Origin: a virus
Direction: 5' to 3' (one strand)
Virus record (IMG/VR): IMGVR_UViG_3300020029_000021
Location: 1-6,062 of that record
Length of the DNA stretch: 6,062 nt
This document shows positions 1-6,062 of the stretch, in pieces (within the stretch, counting starts at the first letter, position 1; every line of letters begins with the position of its first letter). Below the pieces are notes generated by a model. It searched no databases. It had not been told where the DNA came from and saw nothing but the letters and a program-made list of their open reading frames with translations. The position numbers and the translations under genes were made by a program.

Positions 1-121
1 CCTCGTCGTAAGAGGCTCGAAATTCGTTAAAACACGGCTCGTAAGCCACAGTTTCCGTGGCCGAGGTTGTTCCGAATCCAAATTGAAATCCAGGAACGTC
101 CTGGTATCCAATGTCGTTGTA
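1..121. repeat. Terminal direct repeat, copy 1. It is identical to 5942..6062 and is the overlap left by assembling a circular genome.
   Basis: Base-by-base comparison shows 1..121 equals 5942..6062 (offset 5941). The minus-strand capsid reading frame continues without interruption across the implied junction. Confidence 0.97.
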
Positions 122-1546: not shown

Positions 1547-2617
1547 TTAAATGTTTAGTTGAAGTTTATAATGTTCTCGCCAAAACTGGAGAATGTCCAA
1601 ATCCAACCAAGTAGGGGGATCAAAGTCGGGCATTTTCCGGGAAGAGGAAGAGAAGCGCATTATTTGCTTTTGCTCCCACGTGTATGACGCTCTACGGGAT
1701 ACGGCGGAATTGAGATTGAACCGCTCAACACACAAAGACACAATACGCTTAACCAAAGGAGACTTGCTAAAACGTGCATAAGCGTCAGCAGCGGTAATCG
1801 AGCGTACCACCTCATCCTCCGATTTAAGGTACTTAAGGTAATATCGAGGAATCGCGTATTTATAATTGATATCCTTCTCACTATCATAATAAGACCACGA
1901 CGAAACGCGAGCAGAAGGACGAGGCATATAGCCAAGAAAATCACCAACGCCAGCAGATACGAATTTTCGCGTATAGCGGCGATGCTGGAGGAGGCAAGAT
2001 AAAGGTGTAAGATTTCCATCTACGGTAACATGTTTATCCGAGATTTCCTCGGGATTAAATTGAATCTGTTTAGTAACATACTTTACGCAATAGCGAGCGC
2101 GTTTGTGGGTGGCCTTCGCGAGCCACACAAAGCCAAGGTCTCGAACGGCAGAGCGAATAGTGTTATAGAGAACATTTGTGCCAAACAGAAAACCATGGAA
2201 ATGTAATCGAGGCTCATTTCCTGTCTCCGGGTGAGTGCCGAACTCCTGGAAAAAGGCATGCTTGAACGAATGGCCGAGTTTATGCCGCAAGCGCTCATTG
2301 AAGCGGCGGATGAATCGGGAGGGGTCGAGCAAGGCTTCATTATAATACTTCGGAGCAATAGTTATTGTAATAAAAATAGCCTGCTGATCATTAGCCTTGC
2401 AGTAGGCGAGCTCACGCTCTAGCCTAACAAACCAACTATTACGCTGACGACGCAAGCAGTCTTCACACTTTCCGCAGGGGACCATCAGCCACTGGCGAGC
2501 GACATCCCAGGGTCGAAGAGCTAAAGCCGACTTAGCGACATCAGAACCACTTCGGCAAGGATTTTTCTTGTCGAAATAACGGCGGTTGCGAATCCATATG
2601 GGAGACGAACAAGGCAT
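1547..2617 (-). CDS. VP4: Replication initiation protein VP4 (rolling-circle HUH endonuclease, phage gpA family), 356 aa from the ATG at 2617.
   Basis: The N-terminus MPCSSPIWIRN is typical of microvirus Rep proteins. It has a CxxCxxC element (PCGKCEDCLRRQRNSW), motif 1 (AIFITITIAP), the HUH motif (RLHFHGFLFG) and a double-tyrosine motif (YCVKYVTK, compare phiX174 A YVAKYVNK). The track start at 2638 is a TTG. The ATG at 2617 overlaps the upstream ORF stop as TAATG. The stop lies 3 nt before the VP1 ATG. Confidence 0.93.
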   Translation of the reverse strand: MPCSSPIWIRNRRYFDKKNPCRSGSDVAKSALALRPWDVARQWLMVPCGKCEDCLRRQRNSWFVRLERELAYCKANDQQAIFITITIAPKYYNEALLDPSRFIRRFNERLRHKLGHSFKHAFFQEFGTHPETGNEPRLHFHGFLFGTNVLYNTIRSAVRDLGFVWLAKATHKRARYCVKYVTKQIQFNPEEISDKHVTVDGNLTPLSCLLQHRRYTRKFVSAGVGDFLGYMPRPSARVSSWSYYDSEKDINYKYAIPRYYLKYLKSEDEVVRSITAADAYARFSKSPLVKRIVSLCVERFNLNSAVSRRASYTWEQKQIMRFSSSSRKMPDFDPPTWLDLDILQFWREHYKLQLNI

Positions 2618-2817
2618 TAGAGTAAACTTCGAAGACAATCAAATTTAATACTAGGGTGGTCGAGACGACAACGAATAAGGTAATCATTCGCAGGGGTCTC
2701 GTCGGCGAACCAAGCAATAACAACTCGTTTCCGACCTCTGTATGCGCCAATAGAATAGCGATGAGGAATGCTATTGATAGTAGGGGAGAATCTAGGACGA
2801 AAATCGAAATAATCCAT
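2617..2817 (-). CDS. Hypothetical small, mildly basic protein of 66 aa from the ATG at 2817, possibly translationally coupled to VP4.
   Basis: The product is MDYFDFRPRFSPTINSIPHRYSIGAYRGRKRVVIAWFADETPANDYLIRCRLDHPSIKFDCLRSLL. Its TAA stop (2619..2617) shares one base with the VP4 ATG (2617..2615). It sits where small VP5/J-like proteins sit in related genomes. I recognise no motif. No clear promoter lies between the upstream terminator and this ORF. Confidence 0.5.
   Translation of the reverse strand: MDYFDFRPRFSPTINSIPHRYSIGAYRGRKRVVIAWFADETPANDYLIRCRLDHPSIKFDCLRSLL
2640..2672 (-). promoter_or_regulatory. Candidate Bacteroidota-type promoter P2 for VP4 and downstream genes, located inside ORF66.
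   Basis: The minus strand reads GTTG-N21-TAAATTTG. The -7 box (plus strand caaattta, 2640..2647) matches TAnnTTTG exactly. The -33 box matches TTTG at 3 of 4 positions. The -7 box ends 22 nt upstream of the VP4 ATG. It shares the 9-mer TTGTCGTCT at the -33 position with P1. Confidence 0.35.
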
Positions 2818-2820
2818 AGT

Positions 2821-2864
2821 CAAAAAAAATACTTTGCGCTTCGAAAGACGGTACTTTCGAACGC
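2821..2864 (-). terminator. Hairpin followed by a T8 tract directly upstream of the ORF66 start. It may be a second terminator or attenuator, or a U-rich translation leader.
   Basis: The minus strand reads GCG-TTCGAAAG-TACCGT-CTTTCGAA-(G)-CGC, then AAAGTA, then TTTTTTTT, then GACT-ATG. The core stem is 8 bp and perfect, with 3 further bp across a 1-nt bulge. The 6-nt spacer between stem and T tract is not canonical for an intrinsic terminator. Confidence 0.3.
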
Positions 2865-2967
2865 GAAAACTACTACGTTTCGCCGGCCGACAGCCTTAAC
2901 GGCTGGGACGCTGCGCGTCTTCGGCCTCCATGGCTTCACTCCGTTTGGGATATACCGGCAAAGCCGG
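2863..2967 (-). other. Cluster of GC-rich stem-loops in the large intergenic region, including a compact three-way junction. It is a candidate ssDNA origin or priming structure, or a structured RNA.
   Basis: Hairpin GCGAAA(2863..2868)/TTTCGC(2878..2883). Three-way junction 2885..2926: outer stem GGCCGA/TCGGCC encloses CAGCC-TTAAC-GGCTG (2891..2905) and GACGC-TGC-GCGTC (2907..2919), giving 16 Watson-Crick pairs in 42 nt. Hairpin CCGGC-AAA-GCCGG (2955..2967). No ORF explains this region. Confidence 0.6.
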
Positions 2968-2972
2968 TGGAC

Positions 2973-3008
2973 AAAAAAGCCCACAGGAGAAGGAATATCT
3001 CCTGGGGC
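2973..3008 (-). terminator. Rho-independent terminator downstream of ORF107.
   Basis: The minus strand reads GCCC-CAGGAGA-TATTCCT-TCTCCTG-(T)-GGGC followed directly by TTTTTTG. The stem has 11 bp with one bulge and is GC-rich at its base. The structure begins 45 nt after the ORF107 stop codon. Confidence 0.75.
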
Positions 3009-3053
3009 CTAACAAATCAAAGAACTTTTCCACCAAGCGGGCGGGTTACTACT

Positions 3054-3377
3054 TTAGTTCCCTTTCCCTTCTTCCTGCGACGTGCCTTCATCGGGAGTCA
3101 AATCAAAGTCAAACATAAGAACAAATGTATTGTCGAAAAACTCGACATCAAAATTTGGATACGTGCTCAAGGCGCCCATGAGGCCCGAAACAGAACGATG
3201 CTCAATATAGGGAGAATCAGCAATACTGGAATGCTCAACATAGGTAGAAATGGGGGTACGCTTAAGAGCATCAAGAGAGAGCGCCGAGAACTGTCCATTT
3301 TCAATGTAGCCTACCTGGACAAGATCAATCTTAAAGGCAGGATTAATGCGACGAATAACAACATGAATCTGTGTCAT
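3054..3377 (-). CDS. Hypothetical acidic protein of 107 aa from the ATG at 3377.
   Basis: The product is MTQIHVVIRRINPAFKIDLVQVGYIENGQFSALSLDALKRTPISTYVEHSSIADSPYIEHRSVSGLMGALSTYPNFDVEFFDNTFVLMFDFDLTPDEGTSQEEGKGN. I count about 15 D/E against 7 K/R. The ATG lies 16 nt after the ORF104 stop. The longer track start at 3491 is a GTG and would overlap ORF104 by about 100 nt. A strong terminator follows. I recognise no family. Confidence 0.7.
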   Translation of the reverse strand: MTQIHVVIRRINPAFKIDLVQVGYIENGQFSALSLDALKRTPISTYVEHSSIADSPYIEHRSVSGLMGALSTYPNFDVEFFDNTFVLMFDFDLTPDEGTSQEEGKGN

Positions 3378-3393
3378 AATTAAAGAGGTTGAG

Positions 3394-3708
3394 TTAAAAG
3401 CGAAAAAAGTATTTACAAAAATCTGACCAGCGCCGAGATGCGTCACACCAGAATTCACGACCTTCGGGGGTTGATTCGAAAAGGAATGCACCAGTCATAA
3501 GAAAAGAATAATCGGTAACGGGAAATGCTGCATAAGTACGAATGCGAAGCCGAATGTAGCTGCGAGCAGACATAGTAGTGTGTCTGTCCGCCACGAGATT
3601 CTTCGCGAATCTACGATAAAGACGATTTCGAATAAGCCACTCAACGAAAAGGTAGTCTAAAGCATCAACTCGTAAATCAAACTGACTAAAAGATTTTTGT
3701 GCTTTCAT
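3394..3708 (-). CDS. Hypothetical basic protein of 104 aa.
   Basis: The product starts at an ATG and reads MKAQKSFSQFDLRVDALDYLFVEWLIRNRLYRRFAKNLVADRHTTMSARSYIRLRIRTYAAFPVTDYSFLMTGAFLFESTPEGREFWCDASRRWSDFCKYFFRF. I count about 18 K/R against 11 D/E. The C-terminal F-x-F-x-x-TPEG-x-x-FW-x(6)-W pattern looks like something I have seen in small uncharacterised phage proteins, but I cannot name a family. It is the first gene after candidate promoter P1. Confidence 0.75.
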   Translation of the reverse strand: MKAQKSFSQFDLRVDALDYLFVEWLIRNRLYRRFAKNLVADRHTTMSARSYIRLRIRTYAAFPVTDYSFLMTGAFLFESTPEGREFWCDASRRWSDFCKYFFRF

Positions 3709-3734
3709 AATAGTGTGGTTATTGGTTTACAATG

Positions 3735-3765
3735 CAAACATACAACAAAGGGAATAGACGACAAA
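3735..3765 (-). promoter_or_regulatory. Candidate Bacteroidota sigma-AB type promoter P1 (-33 TTTG / -7 TAnnTTTG) driving ORF104 and ORF107.
   Basis: The minus strand reads TTTG-tcgtctattccctttgttg-TATGTTTG. The -33 box is plus-strand caaa at 3762..3765, the spacer is 19 nt, and the -7 box is plus-strand caaacata at 3735..3742. It lies in the 80-nt gap between the VP2 stop and the ORF104 start, and the -7 box ends 26 nt upstream of the ATG. Confidence 0.65.
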
Positions 3766-3788: not shown

Positions 3789-5057
3789 TTAATTTCTCCC
3801 ACGATAGGTGCGGCGGGCATAGGTAGCACCTTCTCTGTCGCCGTTAGGTCCGTAAAACTCCCTCAACTCTTCGTAACCTTCGGGTCCGGCAGGACCTGCG
3901 GCCTTGCGACCAACATAGGAAGCACCGGCAACGCCTGCGGCAGTAGCAAAGGACCGAATAATGTCATGAGCAAGACGAAGGCGAGAATTACGCAAATCCC
4001 AGCGAGCATTCCCAGTCTCAAGTTGAGCAGCTTCAGCAGCAGCAGACTTCAAAATAGCCGTAGTTTCGGCAACTTTCATCATCTTCGTCTCAACGACCTC
4101 ACCTTTATCATTGCGAATCTGAACAGGAACTTCCTTCTCCCAGTTGAGTTCATACCAATTCTGCAAATCCTTGAGTTCTTGATAGTTAAGTTTCGTACGA
4201 GACTTGGACTCAGCAGCGGCGGAAACGTTGGCGATAGCCGAAGACCAGGCAACAGCGAGGGCAGCTCCAGCTTGAGGCTCAAACCAATCATTCACCATAC
4301 GAATATTCTGATATTTTTCCTCCAGAATGCCAGCCATAGCCATAATAGAAGACATTTTGTAACCTTGAGTAATATTGGCTAAATAAGCGTCAATCGCCAC
4401 AATCTGAGCCTGCGCTTCATGAAGGTTGGCGAGCTCACGGGCATCTTTGACATTATGCTGCGCAATCTGTAATTCAAGATTATCCATTTTCTCTCGCCAC
4501 TCTTGCGTATGAGTGTTACCACGAAGATTTTCTGCTTCCGCATCATCTCGGTTAGCGGCAGCAGTATTGCGGTCAACCGTGGACCGAGCAACCATATTCT
4601 GCGCGATAGCGGCGGGGTCACCGGGGACGAAAGCACCAGGGCTAACTGGAGAACCGCCGGAAGGGCCGGAAGCGGAGGGCATGCCTGCAGAACCGCCAGA
4701 CATAGTAGCGTTGATACCAACACCCGAAGAGCCTAAAACAGCAGCAGGGGTTACGCCAGCCTTCAAATAACGGTCAAAGACCTTTGAGGGATCATTATAT
4801 GAATTTTCATAATCAAACTGCTTTTGCCAATTAGTATAAGAAAGCTCAGACTGTCTCTGCATCTGCTCCAAAGCATATTTCTGCTGAAGAGCCATCTGCT
4901 TCTGCTGAAAACGCCATTGGCGACGAGCGTTCATGCCGCCAAAAAGCTGGCCTAAAAAGCCATTAATCAGGCCGGTAGTGCCGGTAGAGGCGGCAGATTC
5001 TCCAAGGGCGCGGCCGAAAGAGGCAGCACCGGCGGCTGCAATAACAGGGGCGGGCAT
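3789..5057 (-). CDS. VP2: Minor capsid / DNA pilot protein VP2-like, 422 aa.
   Basis: It has a Gly/Ala-rich hydrophobic N-terminus (MPAPVIAAAGAASFGRALGE...GLINGFLGQLFGG) and a Q-rich helix (RRQWRFQQKQMALQQKYALEQMQRQ). FDRYLKAGVTPAAVLG resembles the AGLNP..L motif I recall in microvirus pilot proteins. It also has a Gly/Ser/Pro-rich linker and a long helical, coiled-coil-like centre (REKMDNLELQIAQHNVKDARELANLHEAQAQIVAIDAYLANI). Its size and gene context fit VP2. Confidence 0.85.
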   Translation of the reverse strand: MPAPVIAAAGAASFGRALGESAASTGTTGLINGFLGQLFGGMNARRQWRFQQKQMALQQKYALEQMQRQSELSYTNWQKQFDYENSYNDPSKVFDRYLKAGVTPAAVLGSSGVGINATMSGGSAGMPSASGPSGGSPVSPGAFVPGDPAAIAQNMVARSTVDRNTAAANRDDAEAENLRGNTHTQEWREKMDNLELQIAQHNVKDARELANLHEAQAQIVAIDAYLANITQGYKMSSIMAMAGILEEKYQNIRMVNDWFEPQAGAALAVAWSSAIANVSAAAESKSRTKLNYQELKDLQNWYELNWEKEVPVQIRNDKGEVVETKMMKVAETTAILKSAAAEAAQLETGNARWDLRNSRLRLAHDIIRSFATAAGVAGASYVGRKAAGPAGPEGYEELREFYGPNGDREGATYARRTYRGRN

Positions 5058-5058
5058 G

Positions 5059-5250
5059 CTACATATTAGTTAAATTGTTAGAGCGAATAATGTAATCGAC
5101 ACGCACTGTATCGACGTGAACACCGCTACGCTGCATTCGTGCTTGAGCAGAACAAGATGAAAGAAAGAAAGCGGCCAAAGCAGCAACGATAGACGAAACG
5201 AGTGTCCAAAACGCTTTCGACTTATAAAAGGGTTGTTTAGTATCAGACAT
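5059..5250 (-). CDS. Small predicted lipoprotein of 63 aa (31-aa mature peptide). It is a candidate lysis or receptor-masking/superinfection-exclusion protein.
   Basis: From the ATG at 5250 the product is MSDTKQPFYKSKAFWTLVSSIVAALAAFFLSSCSAQARMQRSGVHVDTVRVDYIIRSNNLTNM. It has a Lys-containing n-region, a hydrophobic h-region, and the lipobox L-S-S-C. The TAG stop is 1 nt from the VP2 ATG (ATGTAGCATG). The longer track start at 5355 is a GTG and would read through the intergenic hairpin. Confidence 0.7.
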   Translation of the reverse strand: MSDTKQPFYKSKAFWTLVSSIVAALAAFFLSSCSAQARMQRSGVHVDTVRVDYIIRSNNLTNM

Positions 5251-5281
5251 AGGGATAAAATTTAAAGAACGATAGAAAAAT

Positions 5282-5353
5282 GCGCGGCCTCTCCTGCAGT
5301 CGCTACCAATAACCTTCAGCAATTCACGAACTCTTGCAGAAAGGGGTCCGCGC
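5282..5353 (-). other. Long imperfect hairpin in the ORF98/lipoprotein intergenic region. It may be a leaky terminator or an ssDNA structural element.
   Basis: GCGCGG(5282..5287) pairs with CCGCGC(5348..5353). CC(5288..5289) pairs with GG(5345..5346) across a 1-nt bulge. CTGCAG(5294..5299) pairs with TTGCAG(5334..5339), with one G-T pair. The loop is about 34 nt. On the minus strand the hairpin is followed by ATTTTTCT. Confidence 0.45.
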
Positions 5354-5384: not shown

Positions 5385-5681
5385 CTATTTTTCTTCAGAA
5401 TTGGAAGATTTAGAAGTAGGCCTCGACCTATCCAACTCTGAATCAATAAGTTCCTGACCAACCTCGAGGCCATCAAACTTATCCATACGAGAGAAAGAAT
5501 TAGGGTCAAAGTCAATCTCAGGGTTAAACTTTTCGCCCTTATCGAAGTCAGACGAGGACGCCTCGACGTCCGGACGACCAGGGAGAACGTCAACGGAACC
5601 AGAACCATCGAGAACAGAAAGAATACGCTGACCGCGAGAAACATAGGCGGGGGCGTCCTCAAGAAGCCATTCAAGTGCCAT
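5385..5681 (-). CDS. Hypothetical strongly acidic protein of 98 aa. It is a possible scaffolding-type protein, suggested by position and composition only.
   Basis: The ATG at 5681 lies 12 nt after the VP1 stop. The product is MALEWLLEDAPAYVSRGQRILSVLDGSGSVDVLPGRPDVEASSSDFDKGEKFNPEIDFDPNSFSRMDKFDGLEVGQELIDSELDRSRPTSKSSNSEEK. It is rich in D/E and looks largely disordered. I recognise no family. Confidence 0.7.
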   Translation of the reverse strand: MALEWLLEDAPAYVSRGQRILSVLDGSGSVDVLPGRPDVEASSSDFDKGEKFNPEIDFDPNSFSRMDKFDGLEVGQELIDSELDRSRPTSKSSNSEEK

Positions 5682-5693
5682 AAAATCAATGTA

Positions 5694-6062
5694 TTAACGA
5701 TTAGACAAACGGGTTGCAAAAGTTTTATTTACCAGATTCTTCTTCTGAACGGAATACGAAAGGTTAATGAAAAAATTGTCTTCCCTCTTAGAGAAAAACG
5801 GCGAGTTAACCTGGTCAATATCCACAAACAGGAGAGAGTAGTACTGGTTATAGCTCGCAGACAAAACGCGCTGCTGGACCCAATAAGAGTAAAGGGGTAC
5901 AGCGCTGTCGGAAACCTGGAACCGAGACAACTGACCCATGACCTCGTCGTAAGAGGCTCGAAATTCGTTAAAACACGGCTCGTAAGCCACAGTTTCCGTG
6001 GCCGAGGTTGTTCCGAATCCAAATTGAAATCCAGGAACGTCCTGGTATCCAATGTCGTTGTA
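5694..6062 (-). CDS. VP1: Major capsid protein VP1, 3' portion. 5694..5941 holds the unique C-terminal codons and stop. 5942..6062 duplicates 1..121.
   Basis: It is in the same frame as 1..1543 after the 5941-nt offset. The junction codon GTC (positions 1/5941/5940) gives ...SYDEVMGQLSRFQVSDSAVPLYSYWVQQRVLSASYNQYYSLLFVDIDQVNSPFFSKREDNFFINLSYSVQKKNLVNKTFATRLSNR followed by a stop (TAA at 5696..5694). The M at 5990 in the ORF track is an internal GTG (Val). Confidence 0.95.
   Translation of the reverse strand, partial: YNDIGYQDVPGFQFGFGTTSATETVAYEPCFNEFRASYDEVMGQLSRFQVSDSAVPLYSYWVQQRVLSASYNQYYSLLFVDIDQVNSPFFSKREDNFFINLSYSVQKKNLVNKTFATRLSNR
5942..6062. repeat. Terminal direct repeat, copy 2 (identical to 1..121).
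   Basis: It is an exact 121-nt match to the window start. Confidence 0.97.

Follow-up and report, generated by a model that had tools for sequence, protein, structure and literature searches.

Gut microviruses of the type examined here are abundant, and functions have been assigned to just three of their approximately eight genes. Two of the other genes raise the question addressed in this study. In the window, by which we mean the whole 6,062-nucleotide (nt) stretch of IMG/VR virus record IMGVR_UViG_3300020029_000021, a basic open reading frame (ORF) termed ORF104 and an acidic one termed ORF107 are preceded by a promoter-like sequence, P1, and followed by a GC-rich hairpin with a T tract. 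Is this promoter-ORF104-ORF107-hairpin unit an accessory cassette that was inserted into the genome, or does it belong to the core? An original prediction, made from the letters of the sequence, described a self-contained cassette that resembles the morons of larger phages. The elements named there are all present on the minus strand, including the promoter, basic ORF104, acidic ORF107 beginning 16 nt further on, and the hairpin followed by six T residues (Table 1). The conservation, selection and distribution described below point to a conserved core transcription unit and not to an inserted accessory cassette. Taken together with the mechanism and functions that we propose for it, we consider this reading to be evenly balanced between acceptance and doubt.

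A fixed position in related microvirus genomes

A scan of IMG/VR viral contigs yielded 80 loci, and the set analysed here comprises 63 circular genomes, made up of 58 IMG/VR loci, four GenBank relatives and the window. By tblastn, ORF107 is present in all 63 of these genomes and ORF104 in 61. The two genes form a pair at one fixed position (VP2 - ORF104 - ORF107 - noncoding - Rep) in essentially all relatives, located between the genes for the pilot protein VP2 and the replication protein Rep (VP4). The identical order of VP2, ORF104-like gene, ORF107-like gene, gap and VP4 is found in GenBank relatives from pig, civet, musk-deer, rodent, lemur and tortoise faeces. MG945141 and Tortoise microvirus 7 both lack ORF104. 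Distant syntenic homologues of ORF107 are found in Tortoise microvirus 7, bajarodmic virus 608 and MG945453, and weakly in Dulem virus 225 (local profiles). Both genes are under purifying selection, with median ratios of nonsynonymous to synonymous substitution rates (dN/dS) of 0.37 for ORF104 and 0.27 for ORF107, compared with 0.36 for VP2 and 0.09 for Rep. The two proteins are already in databases as hypothetical proteins (MG9454xx GenBank records; UniProt A0A8S5NNI9).

The near-universal presence of both genes, their fixed position and the distant homologues of ORF107 speak against a moron reading of the unit as a whole. Near-universal conservation marks the pair as core genes; homology to the microvirus proteins VP3 and VP5, which had been raised as the identity such core genes might have, was not found, so they are core genes without that identity. 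The description of the locus as a discrete promoter/two-ORF/terminator unit holds with regard to its architecture and conservation, but the unit is not self-contained. No terminator is seen between VP2 and P1, and in 10 relatives the next gene, ORF68, begins ~30 nt past the hairpin.

Inheritance of ORF107 with the replication genes

The genome set is strongly mosaic, such that the distances of adjacent genes are often uncorrelated. We correlated pairwise protein distances across 58 mosaic genomes by using Mantel tests. The highest correlation among all gene pairs is that of ORF107 with Rep (r=0.43, p=0.0005). Significant correlations also link ORF107 to ORF104 (r=0.31, p=0.0005), a small membrane ORF to VP2 (r=0.36, p=0.0005), and the major capsid protein VP1 to the acidic ORF that follows it (r=0.23, p=0.0005). 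Distances for VP1 show little relation to those for ORF107 (r=0.05, p=0.16, not significant), ORF104 (r=0.06) or Rep, whose gene is adjacent (r=0.07, not significant). The extent of exchange is also evident from amino acid identity to the window, which is 37-92% for VP2, and for Rep is 82-94% in most relatives and 66-94% over the whole set. Conserved intergenic sequences may be crossover points.

The correlations outline a replication module (ORF107, ORF68 and Rep), a capsid module (VP1 and the acidic ORF), an entry module (a lipoprotein-like ORF and VP2), and a free-moving ORF104. Judged from these sequence distances, ORF107 would reside in the replication module, in the order ORF107 - structured noncoding region - ORF68 - Rep, which argues against capsid-protein binding by ORF107.

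A single conserved promoter-like site

P1 has a -33 element and a -7 element separated by a 19-nt spacer, within the 19-21 nt range of its class. Its pattern (-33 TTTG / -7 TAnnTTTG) is what we take to be the Bacteroides-type consensus, that of the Bacteroidota primary sigma factor, and a scan for sigma-70 promoters found none at the P1 site. The strict pattern occurs twice in the window, compared with 0.20 occurrences expected, and two occurrences were reached in 4 of 200 shuffled sequences. With at most one mismatch and its position unchanged, P1 is present in 56 of 63 relatives. It is the sole promoter-like site conserved across the genome set, as sites upstream of Rep are found in 10-14 genomes only. 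The second strict match in the window falls inside the 3′-terminal part of ORF107, where it may reflect nothing more than the coding of the conserved peptide NFD.EFFDNT.V. If active, this site would yield an RNA of ~140 nt ending at the hairpin.

The leader downstream of P1 carries a near-invariant 13-mer, GTAAACCAATAAC, whose conservation exceeds that of the promoter boxes or the flanking proteins. In 59 of 63 relatives the genome has a single exact copy of AAACCAATAA, always in the P1 leader. In MG945141, which lacks ORF104, P1 and its leader, including the 13-mer, are retained directly before ORF107. The 13-mer could be a 5′ untranslated region or translation element, or alternatively a candidate nick site for Rep. 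It has only TTG...AATAAC in common with the phiX174 origin, a likeness that is a lead and not a finding.

A conserved hairpin that transcription of Rep would have to cross

The window has the form of an intrinsic terminator downstream of ORF107, namely a GC-rich hairpin and then a U tract in the RNA, and termination itself is predicted. The 91-nt region that includes the hairpin folds at -30.6 kcal/mol (z = -3.5). A generic terminator scan of the whole genome found 8 candidates versus 7.2 expected, with no enrichment over chance, and therefore the case for this hairpin rests on its conservation. In most relatives a hairpin of -18 to -36 kcal/mol is located ~47 nt past the ORF107 stop, and it is built from several different stem sequences. 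In an alignment of 30 sequences, 89% of cells are paired, compared with 43-58% in slid controls, and five pairs show changes on both sides. The hairpin is maintained via compensatory changes. RNAalifold applied to a MAFFT alignment recovered only 8 pairs, owing to register shifts, and was replaced by per-sequence folds and a hand-specified structure.

Spacing in the relatives bears on what the hairpin can do. The gap between ORF107 and ORF68 falls into classes of about 105-119, 135-139 and 208-247 nt, and genomes in the 135-139-nt class carry a 65-nt branched hairpin in place of the simple one. In the 10 compact relatives, the 104-119 nt from the ORF107 stop to the ORF68 ATG are taken up by a conserved 35-nt element, the hairpin and ~30 nt past it. 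A -33/-7 promoter would not fit into what is left after the hairpin, and thus ORF68 must be transcribed through it. Because the Rep ATG overlaps the ORF68 stop, Rep must be transcribed through it as well. Given this need for read-through, the hairpin can be at most a leaky terminator or attenuator. By analogy with the internal terminators of phiX174, we infer that it acts in this manner.

The hairpin may also be the first of several hairpins that form in single-stranded DNA (ssDNA) upstream of ORF68-Rep. Indeed, one could propose that it functions mainly in the ssDNA genome itself, for instance as an origin for the complementary strand or as a structure recognized by Rep, rather than as a transcription terminator, and that the supposed cassette is merely the last two genes before a replication-control region. 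Folded as ssDNA, the 236-nt noncoding region between ORF107 and ORF68 (3053..2818) has a free energy of -47.9 kcal/mol (z = -5.4), with the hairpin as the first of six or seven. The stem is preserved by covariation while the T tract is not, reading TTTTTTT, TTTTGTA, TTCCTTT or TCTCTTT in different relatives. The requirement for read-through by downstream genes and the conserved 35-nt element that adjoins the hairpin also agree with a role in DNA. Nonetheless, the 6-9 T residues that follow the hairpin in the window and many relatives are a classical terminator signature. We regard a mainly DNA-level role as a doubtful but live possibility, and one that is not exclusive with termination.

The 35-nt element itself (AGTAGTAACCCGCCCGCTTGGTGGAAAAGTTCTTT) directly follows the ORF107 stop, and its sequence is conserved above the level of coding sequence among relatives. 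Helix 1 of its small hairpin is 100% paired with zero changes on both sides, which neither supports nor refutes the structure. The element is a candidate origin, Rep-binding site or RNA element, and searches of the window against Rfam gave no match. It and the 13-mer are both conserved DNA elements found once per genome, and each is a candidate for the replication origin.

ORF104 and its relatives in tailed gut phages

ORF104 has an isoelectric point (pI) of 9.85, with 18 lysine and arginine residues versus 11 aspartate and glutamate residues. Its structure model is all-helical, with a predicted local distance difference test (pLDDT) score of 83. No match to this model was found by Foldseek in PDB, and none to the sequence in Pfam, NCBIfam or PADLOC. 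The only family matches are weak ones to phrog_10949 (E=0.003) and phrog_16354 (E=0.041). The earlier remark that no family was recognised for either protein is borne out, since family and structure searches gave nothing beyond such weak PHROG matches labeled ‘unknown function’. Structure prediction combined with Foldseek, which had been suggested as a route to identification, produced no accepted PDB match for either protein.

ORF104 evolves rapidly and moves between genomes. Its mean pairwise identity is 44%, compared with 86% for Rep in the same genomes. One locus, L012, differs markedly from the window in ORF104 (37% identity) while the neighbouring ORF107 is 87% identical, and further such swapped pairs were found. 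A direct protein search with ORF104 returned only 48 clusters. Searching 1.84 billion representatives with a profile produced 201 matches at E<=0.001, with repeat proteins among them. Matches from outside the microviruses are single-domain proteins of 77-131 amino acids (aa) and proteins with 2 to ~10 tandem copies (P0200, P0201, P0206 and P0228). An additional candidate, P0211, which contains DUF11 repeats, was rejected as a repeat-driven false positive.

The family has the motif F.W..TPEG..FW....W, and its members outside the microviruses have the common pattern F..FLK.N..Y..F..N ... AF.W..TPEG..FW......W. In ORF104 the ‘TPEG..FW’ motif (F/W-x-W/F-x2-T-P/x-E-G-x2-F/Y-W-x6-W) is present at the C-terminal side of a helical module of ~75 aa, where it is preceded by F..(W/F)L..N..Y..F..N. 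Remote members strongly match PHROGs 16354, 10949, 25460, 30073 and 20568, all of them annotated as ‘unknown function’. ORF104 shares the C-terminal ..F.W..TPEG..FW motif with these PHROGs, and together with its microvirus relatives stands apart from them as a basic, divergent subgroup with lengths of 101-109 aa. Members of the superfamily match nothing in Pfam, NCBIfam or PDB, and their PADLOC matches are at chance level only (E above 0.001). Profiles of the family (A2 and A4) likewise found nothing in PDB.

The most extensive occurrence outside microviruses is on a 151-kb human-gut phage contig (L093; ENA ERZ1310124 NODE_39), which encodes at least 13 ORF104-type paralogues of 87-112 aa in two tandem arrays (4556..5340 and 7107..10255). 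A microvirus-only ORF104 profile detects these paralogues at 31-48 bits, and a reciprocal tblastn search of GenBank phages with one of them has a microvirus ORF104 homologue as its sole match. Megablast of the entire contig against GenBank phages gave no match. On a 46.7-kb contig, an ORF104-type copy adjoins genes for an Mfa-like fimbrillin, NrdD, SprT and Mom. A weak homologue is also present among small hypothetical genes of SJC-group phages of Bacteroides thetaiotaomicron.

On sequence criteria, ORF104 is an exchangeable accessory member of a phage-wide family of helical domains that is shared with tailed gut phages. It is probably a host-interaction or counter-defence accessory protein. 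Thus, part of the initial proposal might apply to ORF104 alone, as an accessory gene with a possible role in anti-defence or host takeover.

Could the entire unit nevertheless be a module of this kind? Morons of lambdoid phages are promoter-gene-terminator units inserted between core genes. The unit in the window resembles them in having a promoter, ORFs and a terminator, identified as motifs, between core genes, and a moron-like accessory module would be an autonomous insertion with products directed at the host, for example for anti-defence or host takeover. The presence of the ORF104 family in tailed gut phages, in paralogue arrays and repeat fusions, together with the rapid evolution and occasional absence or swapping of ORF104, would be expected of such a module. 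Other Alpavirinae have acquired peptidase genes in the interval between VP2 and VP4 (PMC3394797). However, sporadic presence is not observed: the unit is syntenic in nearly all relatives, only ORF104 is missing in a few, and accessory behaviour is confined to that gene. ORF107 is restricted to microviruses and reaches distant relatives among them. Moreover, the unit is not insulated from its neighbours on either side, and no credible PADLOC match (chance level, E>0.001, in some family members) or Pfam match connects it to defence. On balance, we consider a moron-like insertion unlikely.

ORF107, a microvirus-specific protein

ORF107 has a pI of 4.55, with 7 lysine and arginine residues versus 15 aspartate and glutamate residues. 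Its AlphaFold2 model (pLDDT 85) shows an alpha/beta fold followed by a conserved, disordered acidic C-terminal tail (DE.S.EEGKGN). A search of 5.8 billion proteins returned 554 clusters, nearly all on contigs of ~6 kb or shorter, and all are unnamed except for one generic ‘Uncharacterized protein’ entry. Fold matches in BFVD are limited to uncharacterised Microviridae proteins, including one from Microvirus mar42 (15% identity). Foldseek gave no accepted match in PDB; the best candidate there, GFRP, was rejected (E=0.4, template-modelling score of ~0.35). A PDB sequence-profile match to 8fje ‘E8’ (E=4e-6) is spurious, because that entry is a hallucinated designed repeat protein, matched through four weak repeats. 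No match to ORF107 was found in Pfam, PHROG, NCBIfam or PADLOC. ORF107 is a core protein confined to microviruses, and its modelled fold is unlike solved structures.

The original prediction offered, as its conservative alternative, that the two proteins fill the VP3/VP5 scaffolding and DNA-binding roles of gokushoviruses. In this explanation, acidic ORF107 would take the VP3/B role as a scaffold and basic ORF104 the VP5/J/C role in DNA binding or packaging, both highly expressed from their own promoter. Both are small non-capsid microvirus proteins, as are gokushovirus VP3, VP5 and ORF8 and phiX174 B, C, D, J and K, and the slot between the pilot and Rep genes matches that of VP3/ORF8 in Chp2. 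The charge pattern of the pair fits, a strong promoter combined with a terminator suggests high expression, and no J/VP8 or C/VP5 is recognisable in the genome by family scans or hhalign.

The proteins themselves do not bear out this correspondence. Profile comparison by hhalign to 15 microvirus small proteins, among them Chp2 VP3/ORF5/ORF8, phiMH2K Vp3/Vp5/J and phiX174 B/C/D/E/J/K/G, gave probabilities of <1% in every case, with maxima of 0.4% for Chp2 VP3, phiMH2K Vp3 and phiX174 B, and 0.6% for phiX174 C/gokushovirus VP5. There is no Pfam match for either protein to the scaffolding families PF09675 (VP3) or PF02304 (B), and no fold match of ORF107 to these small proteins. ORF107 is also not co-inherited with the capsid protein, whereas the acidic ORF after VP1, at the position predicted for a VP3-like protein (PMC3091885), is. 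As for ORF104, some relatives do without it, its family extends to tailed phages, and proteins of the J/VP8 type are far more basic. A morphogenesis pair is for these reasons distinctly unlikely.

ORF107 is probably an accessory factor for replication or ssDNA synthesis, in which case it would be a functional analogue, and not a homologue, of phiX174 C/gokushovirus VP5. A more far-reaching proposal combines the two proteins. ORF104 would be the microvirus member of a large undescribed family that is exchanged between microviruses and Bacteroidales tailed phages and has been amplified into arrays of more than 10 paralogues and tandem repeats, and it would act in counter-defence or host takeover as a module that diversifies; ORF107 would be a replication cofactor with a new fold, specific to this lineage of microviruses. 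We offer this combination tentatively, as a possibility.

It is very unlikely that ORF104 or ORF107 is a single-gene lysis protein. The genome has no peptidase or endolysin gene, and the VP2-VP4 slot holds lysis peptidases in other Alpavirinae (PMC3394797; PMC9239249). However, inspection of the sequences reveals no membrane segment in either protein, and the 63-aa lipobox/transmembrane ORF at 5247..5059 is a better candidate. A toxin-antitoxin-like cognate pair, suggested by two small neighbouring genes for a basic and an acidic protein behind one promoter, is hardly credible given that neither protein matches a toxin or antitoxin family, each gene occurs without the other, ORF104 alleles change beside a near-identical ORF107, and such a pair would not be expected in the core genome of a lytic-type 6-kb virus.

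A model for the core transcription unit

In the core-unit reading, P1 would be the principal promoter of the virus, read by the polymerase of a Bacteroidota host, and would drive an abundant ORF104-ORF107 message. The hairpin and T tract would then attenuate transcription into ORF68-Rep and beyond. ORF107 would work with the replication module, and ORF104 would act on the host.

Several observations weigh against this model. P1 and the terminator are motif-level calls, and the T-rich coding strand inflates the number of TTTG-type motifs (221 sense versus 21 antisense sites). Many relatives have a weak T tract behind the hairpin. The pairing of a strong promoter with a terminator would be just as appropriate for a scaffold or another protein that is required stoichiometrically. 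With respect to ORF107, its gene is just ~0.44 kb from Rep and physical linkage could explain their co-inheritance, and neither its sequence nor its model shows anything specific to DNA or Rep binding. Alignments with ORF107 and Rep found no prophage copy in a one-genome-per-species bacterial/archaeal (GTDB) collection. The sole cultured Bacteroidota microvirus of this sort, phiHBP1, a recent and distantly related Bacteroides fragilis isolate (PMC13064476), has neither ORF104 nor ORF107 and no informative promoter.

A host among the Bacteroidota is probable in view of the type of promoter, the faecal origin of the sequences, and the relatives of ORF104 that Bacteroides phages carry. The likeness of phiHBP1 to the window is limited to the capsid protein, at 21% identity. 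Searches of the literature for Alpavirinae isolates and virion proteomics turned up nothing on ORF104 or ORF107.

Internal promoters combined with leaky terminators are an established microvirus pattern, and the architecture of the unit conforms to it. In phiX174, transcription begins at promoters PA, PB and PD and encounters the leaky rho-independent terminators TJ, TF, TG and TH. The window and phiX174 are alike in having a small circular ssDNA genome with a single coding strand, internal promoters, and terminators formed by a hairpin and T tract that require read-through. They differ in that the window has a TTTG/TAnnTTTG promoter, one conserved promoter-like site and unrelated proteins, and is known from sequence alone. 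What is new is modest: the core status of the unit, the co-inherited modules, the outline of the ORF104 superfamily, and the two conserved DNA elements. Current views of microviruses are not overturned by any of these findings, and we regard the unit as a real feature of moderate interest. The analysis provides concrete, testable roles for two hypothetical proteins and identifies a likely main promoter. In addition, the link between ORF104 and the paralogue arrays of large phages defines an unannotated family that merits description at the family level.

Genome organization and neighbouring genes

The window consists of a circular microvirus genome of 5,941 nt plus a terminal duplicate of 121 nt, and every gene is on the minus strand (Table 1). 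Members of the Alpavirinae have VP1, VP2 and VP4 as their recognisable genes, in the order VP4-VP1-small ORFs-VP2 (PMC3091885; PMC3394797). The window is like them in its size of ~6 kb, in gene order, and in having just VP1, VP2 and VP4 recognisable (PMC3091885; PMC3394797). The likeness also includes an acidic ORF after VP1 that is a candidate VP3 and a VP2-VP4 interval with lineage-specific genes. Some Alpavirinae have an M15 peptidase in the slot that is occupied by ORF104 and ORF107 in the clade of the window. Gene order, genome size and recognisable genes, rather than a phylogeny, suggest that the window is an Alpavirinae-like gut microvirus.

Table 1. Positions of genes and sequence elements in the 6,062-nt window, in the order in which they occur from the P1 region through the hairpin, followed by the remaining genes
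Feature	Coordinates	Strand	Remarks
-33 element TTTG of P1	3762..3765	-	Strict pattern match; conserved column in 60 anchored relatives
-7 element TAtgTTTG of P1	3735..3742	-	Strict pattern match to TAnnTTTG
Near-invariant 13-mer GTAAACCAATAAC in P1 leader, ~10 nt before ORF104 ATG	3718..3730	-	
ORF104, 104 aa, basic, predicted all-helical, C-terminal motif F.F..TPEG..FW....W	3394..3708	-	
ORF107, 107 aa, acidic, predicted alpha/beta, disordered acidic C-terminal tail	3054..3377	-	
Second strict promoter-pattern match, within ORF107 3′ end (codons for NFDVEFFDNTFV)	3122..3152	-	At most one mismatch in 33/63 relatives
Conserved 35-nt element directly past ORF107 stop (AGTAGTAACCCGCCCGCTTGGTGGAAAAGTTCTTT), small CC.CC/GG.GG hairpin	3019..3053	-	
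GC-rich hairpin, 11 pairs, one bulge, 7-nt loop	2979..3009	-	-20.7 kcal/mol
T6 tract directly after hairpin	2973..2978	-	
Rest of GC-rich structured noncoding region	2818..2972	-	Length-variable
ORF68, 66 aa, MDYFDFRPRFSP..., stop overlapping Rep ATG (TAATG)	2617..2817	-	Conserved small gene, absent from annotation
Rep (VP4), 356 aa from ATG 2617	1547..2617	-	phrog_942 1.7e-21, PF23343 7.6e-10; frame checked
Major capsid protein (VP1)	starts near 1540, off window start, continues 6062..5694	-	
Acidic 98-aa ORF, disordered-looking, directly after capsid gene	5385..5681	-	
Small lipobox/transmembrane ORF, 63 aa (from MSDTKQ...), hydrophobic segment, lipobox-like LSSC	about 5059..5247	-	
Pilot protein VP2	3789..5057	-	phrog_8689

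ORF68 is present in 62 of 63 relatives, and in 55 of these 62 it overlaps the start of Rep by 1 nt within the sequence TAATG. It has no PHROG match, and its only Pfam match is at chance level (Redoxin, E=0.013, below the cut-off). The overlap suggests that translation of the two genes is coupled. If so, Rep would start at the ATG at 2617 and not at the TTG at 2638 that was chosen by the ORF finder.

Two other small genes have plausible identities based on their sequence and location. For Alpavirinae, a VP3-like internal scaffold has been predicted at the position after VP1 (PMC3091885), and the acidic ORF of the window agrees with that prediction. The 63-aa lipobox/transmembrane ORF is a candidate lysis or membrane protein. 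The ends of the window carry an exact 121-nt direct repeat (1..121 and 5942..6062), which is typical of a circular assembly. The capsid gene spans these ends, and is therefore missing from the ORF list.

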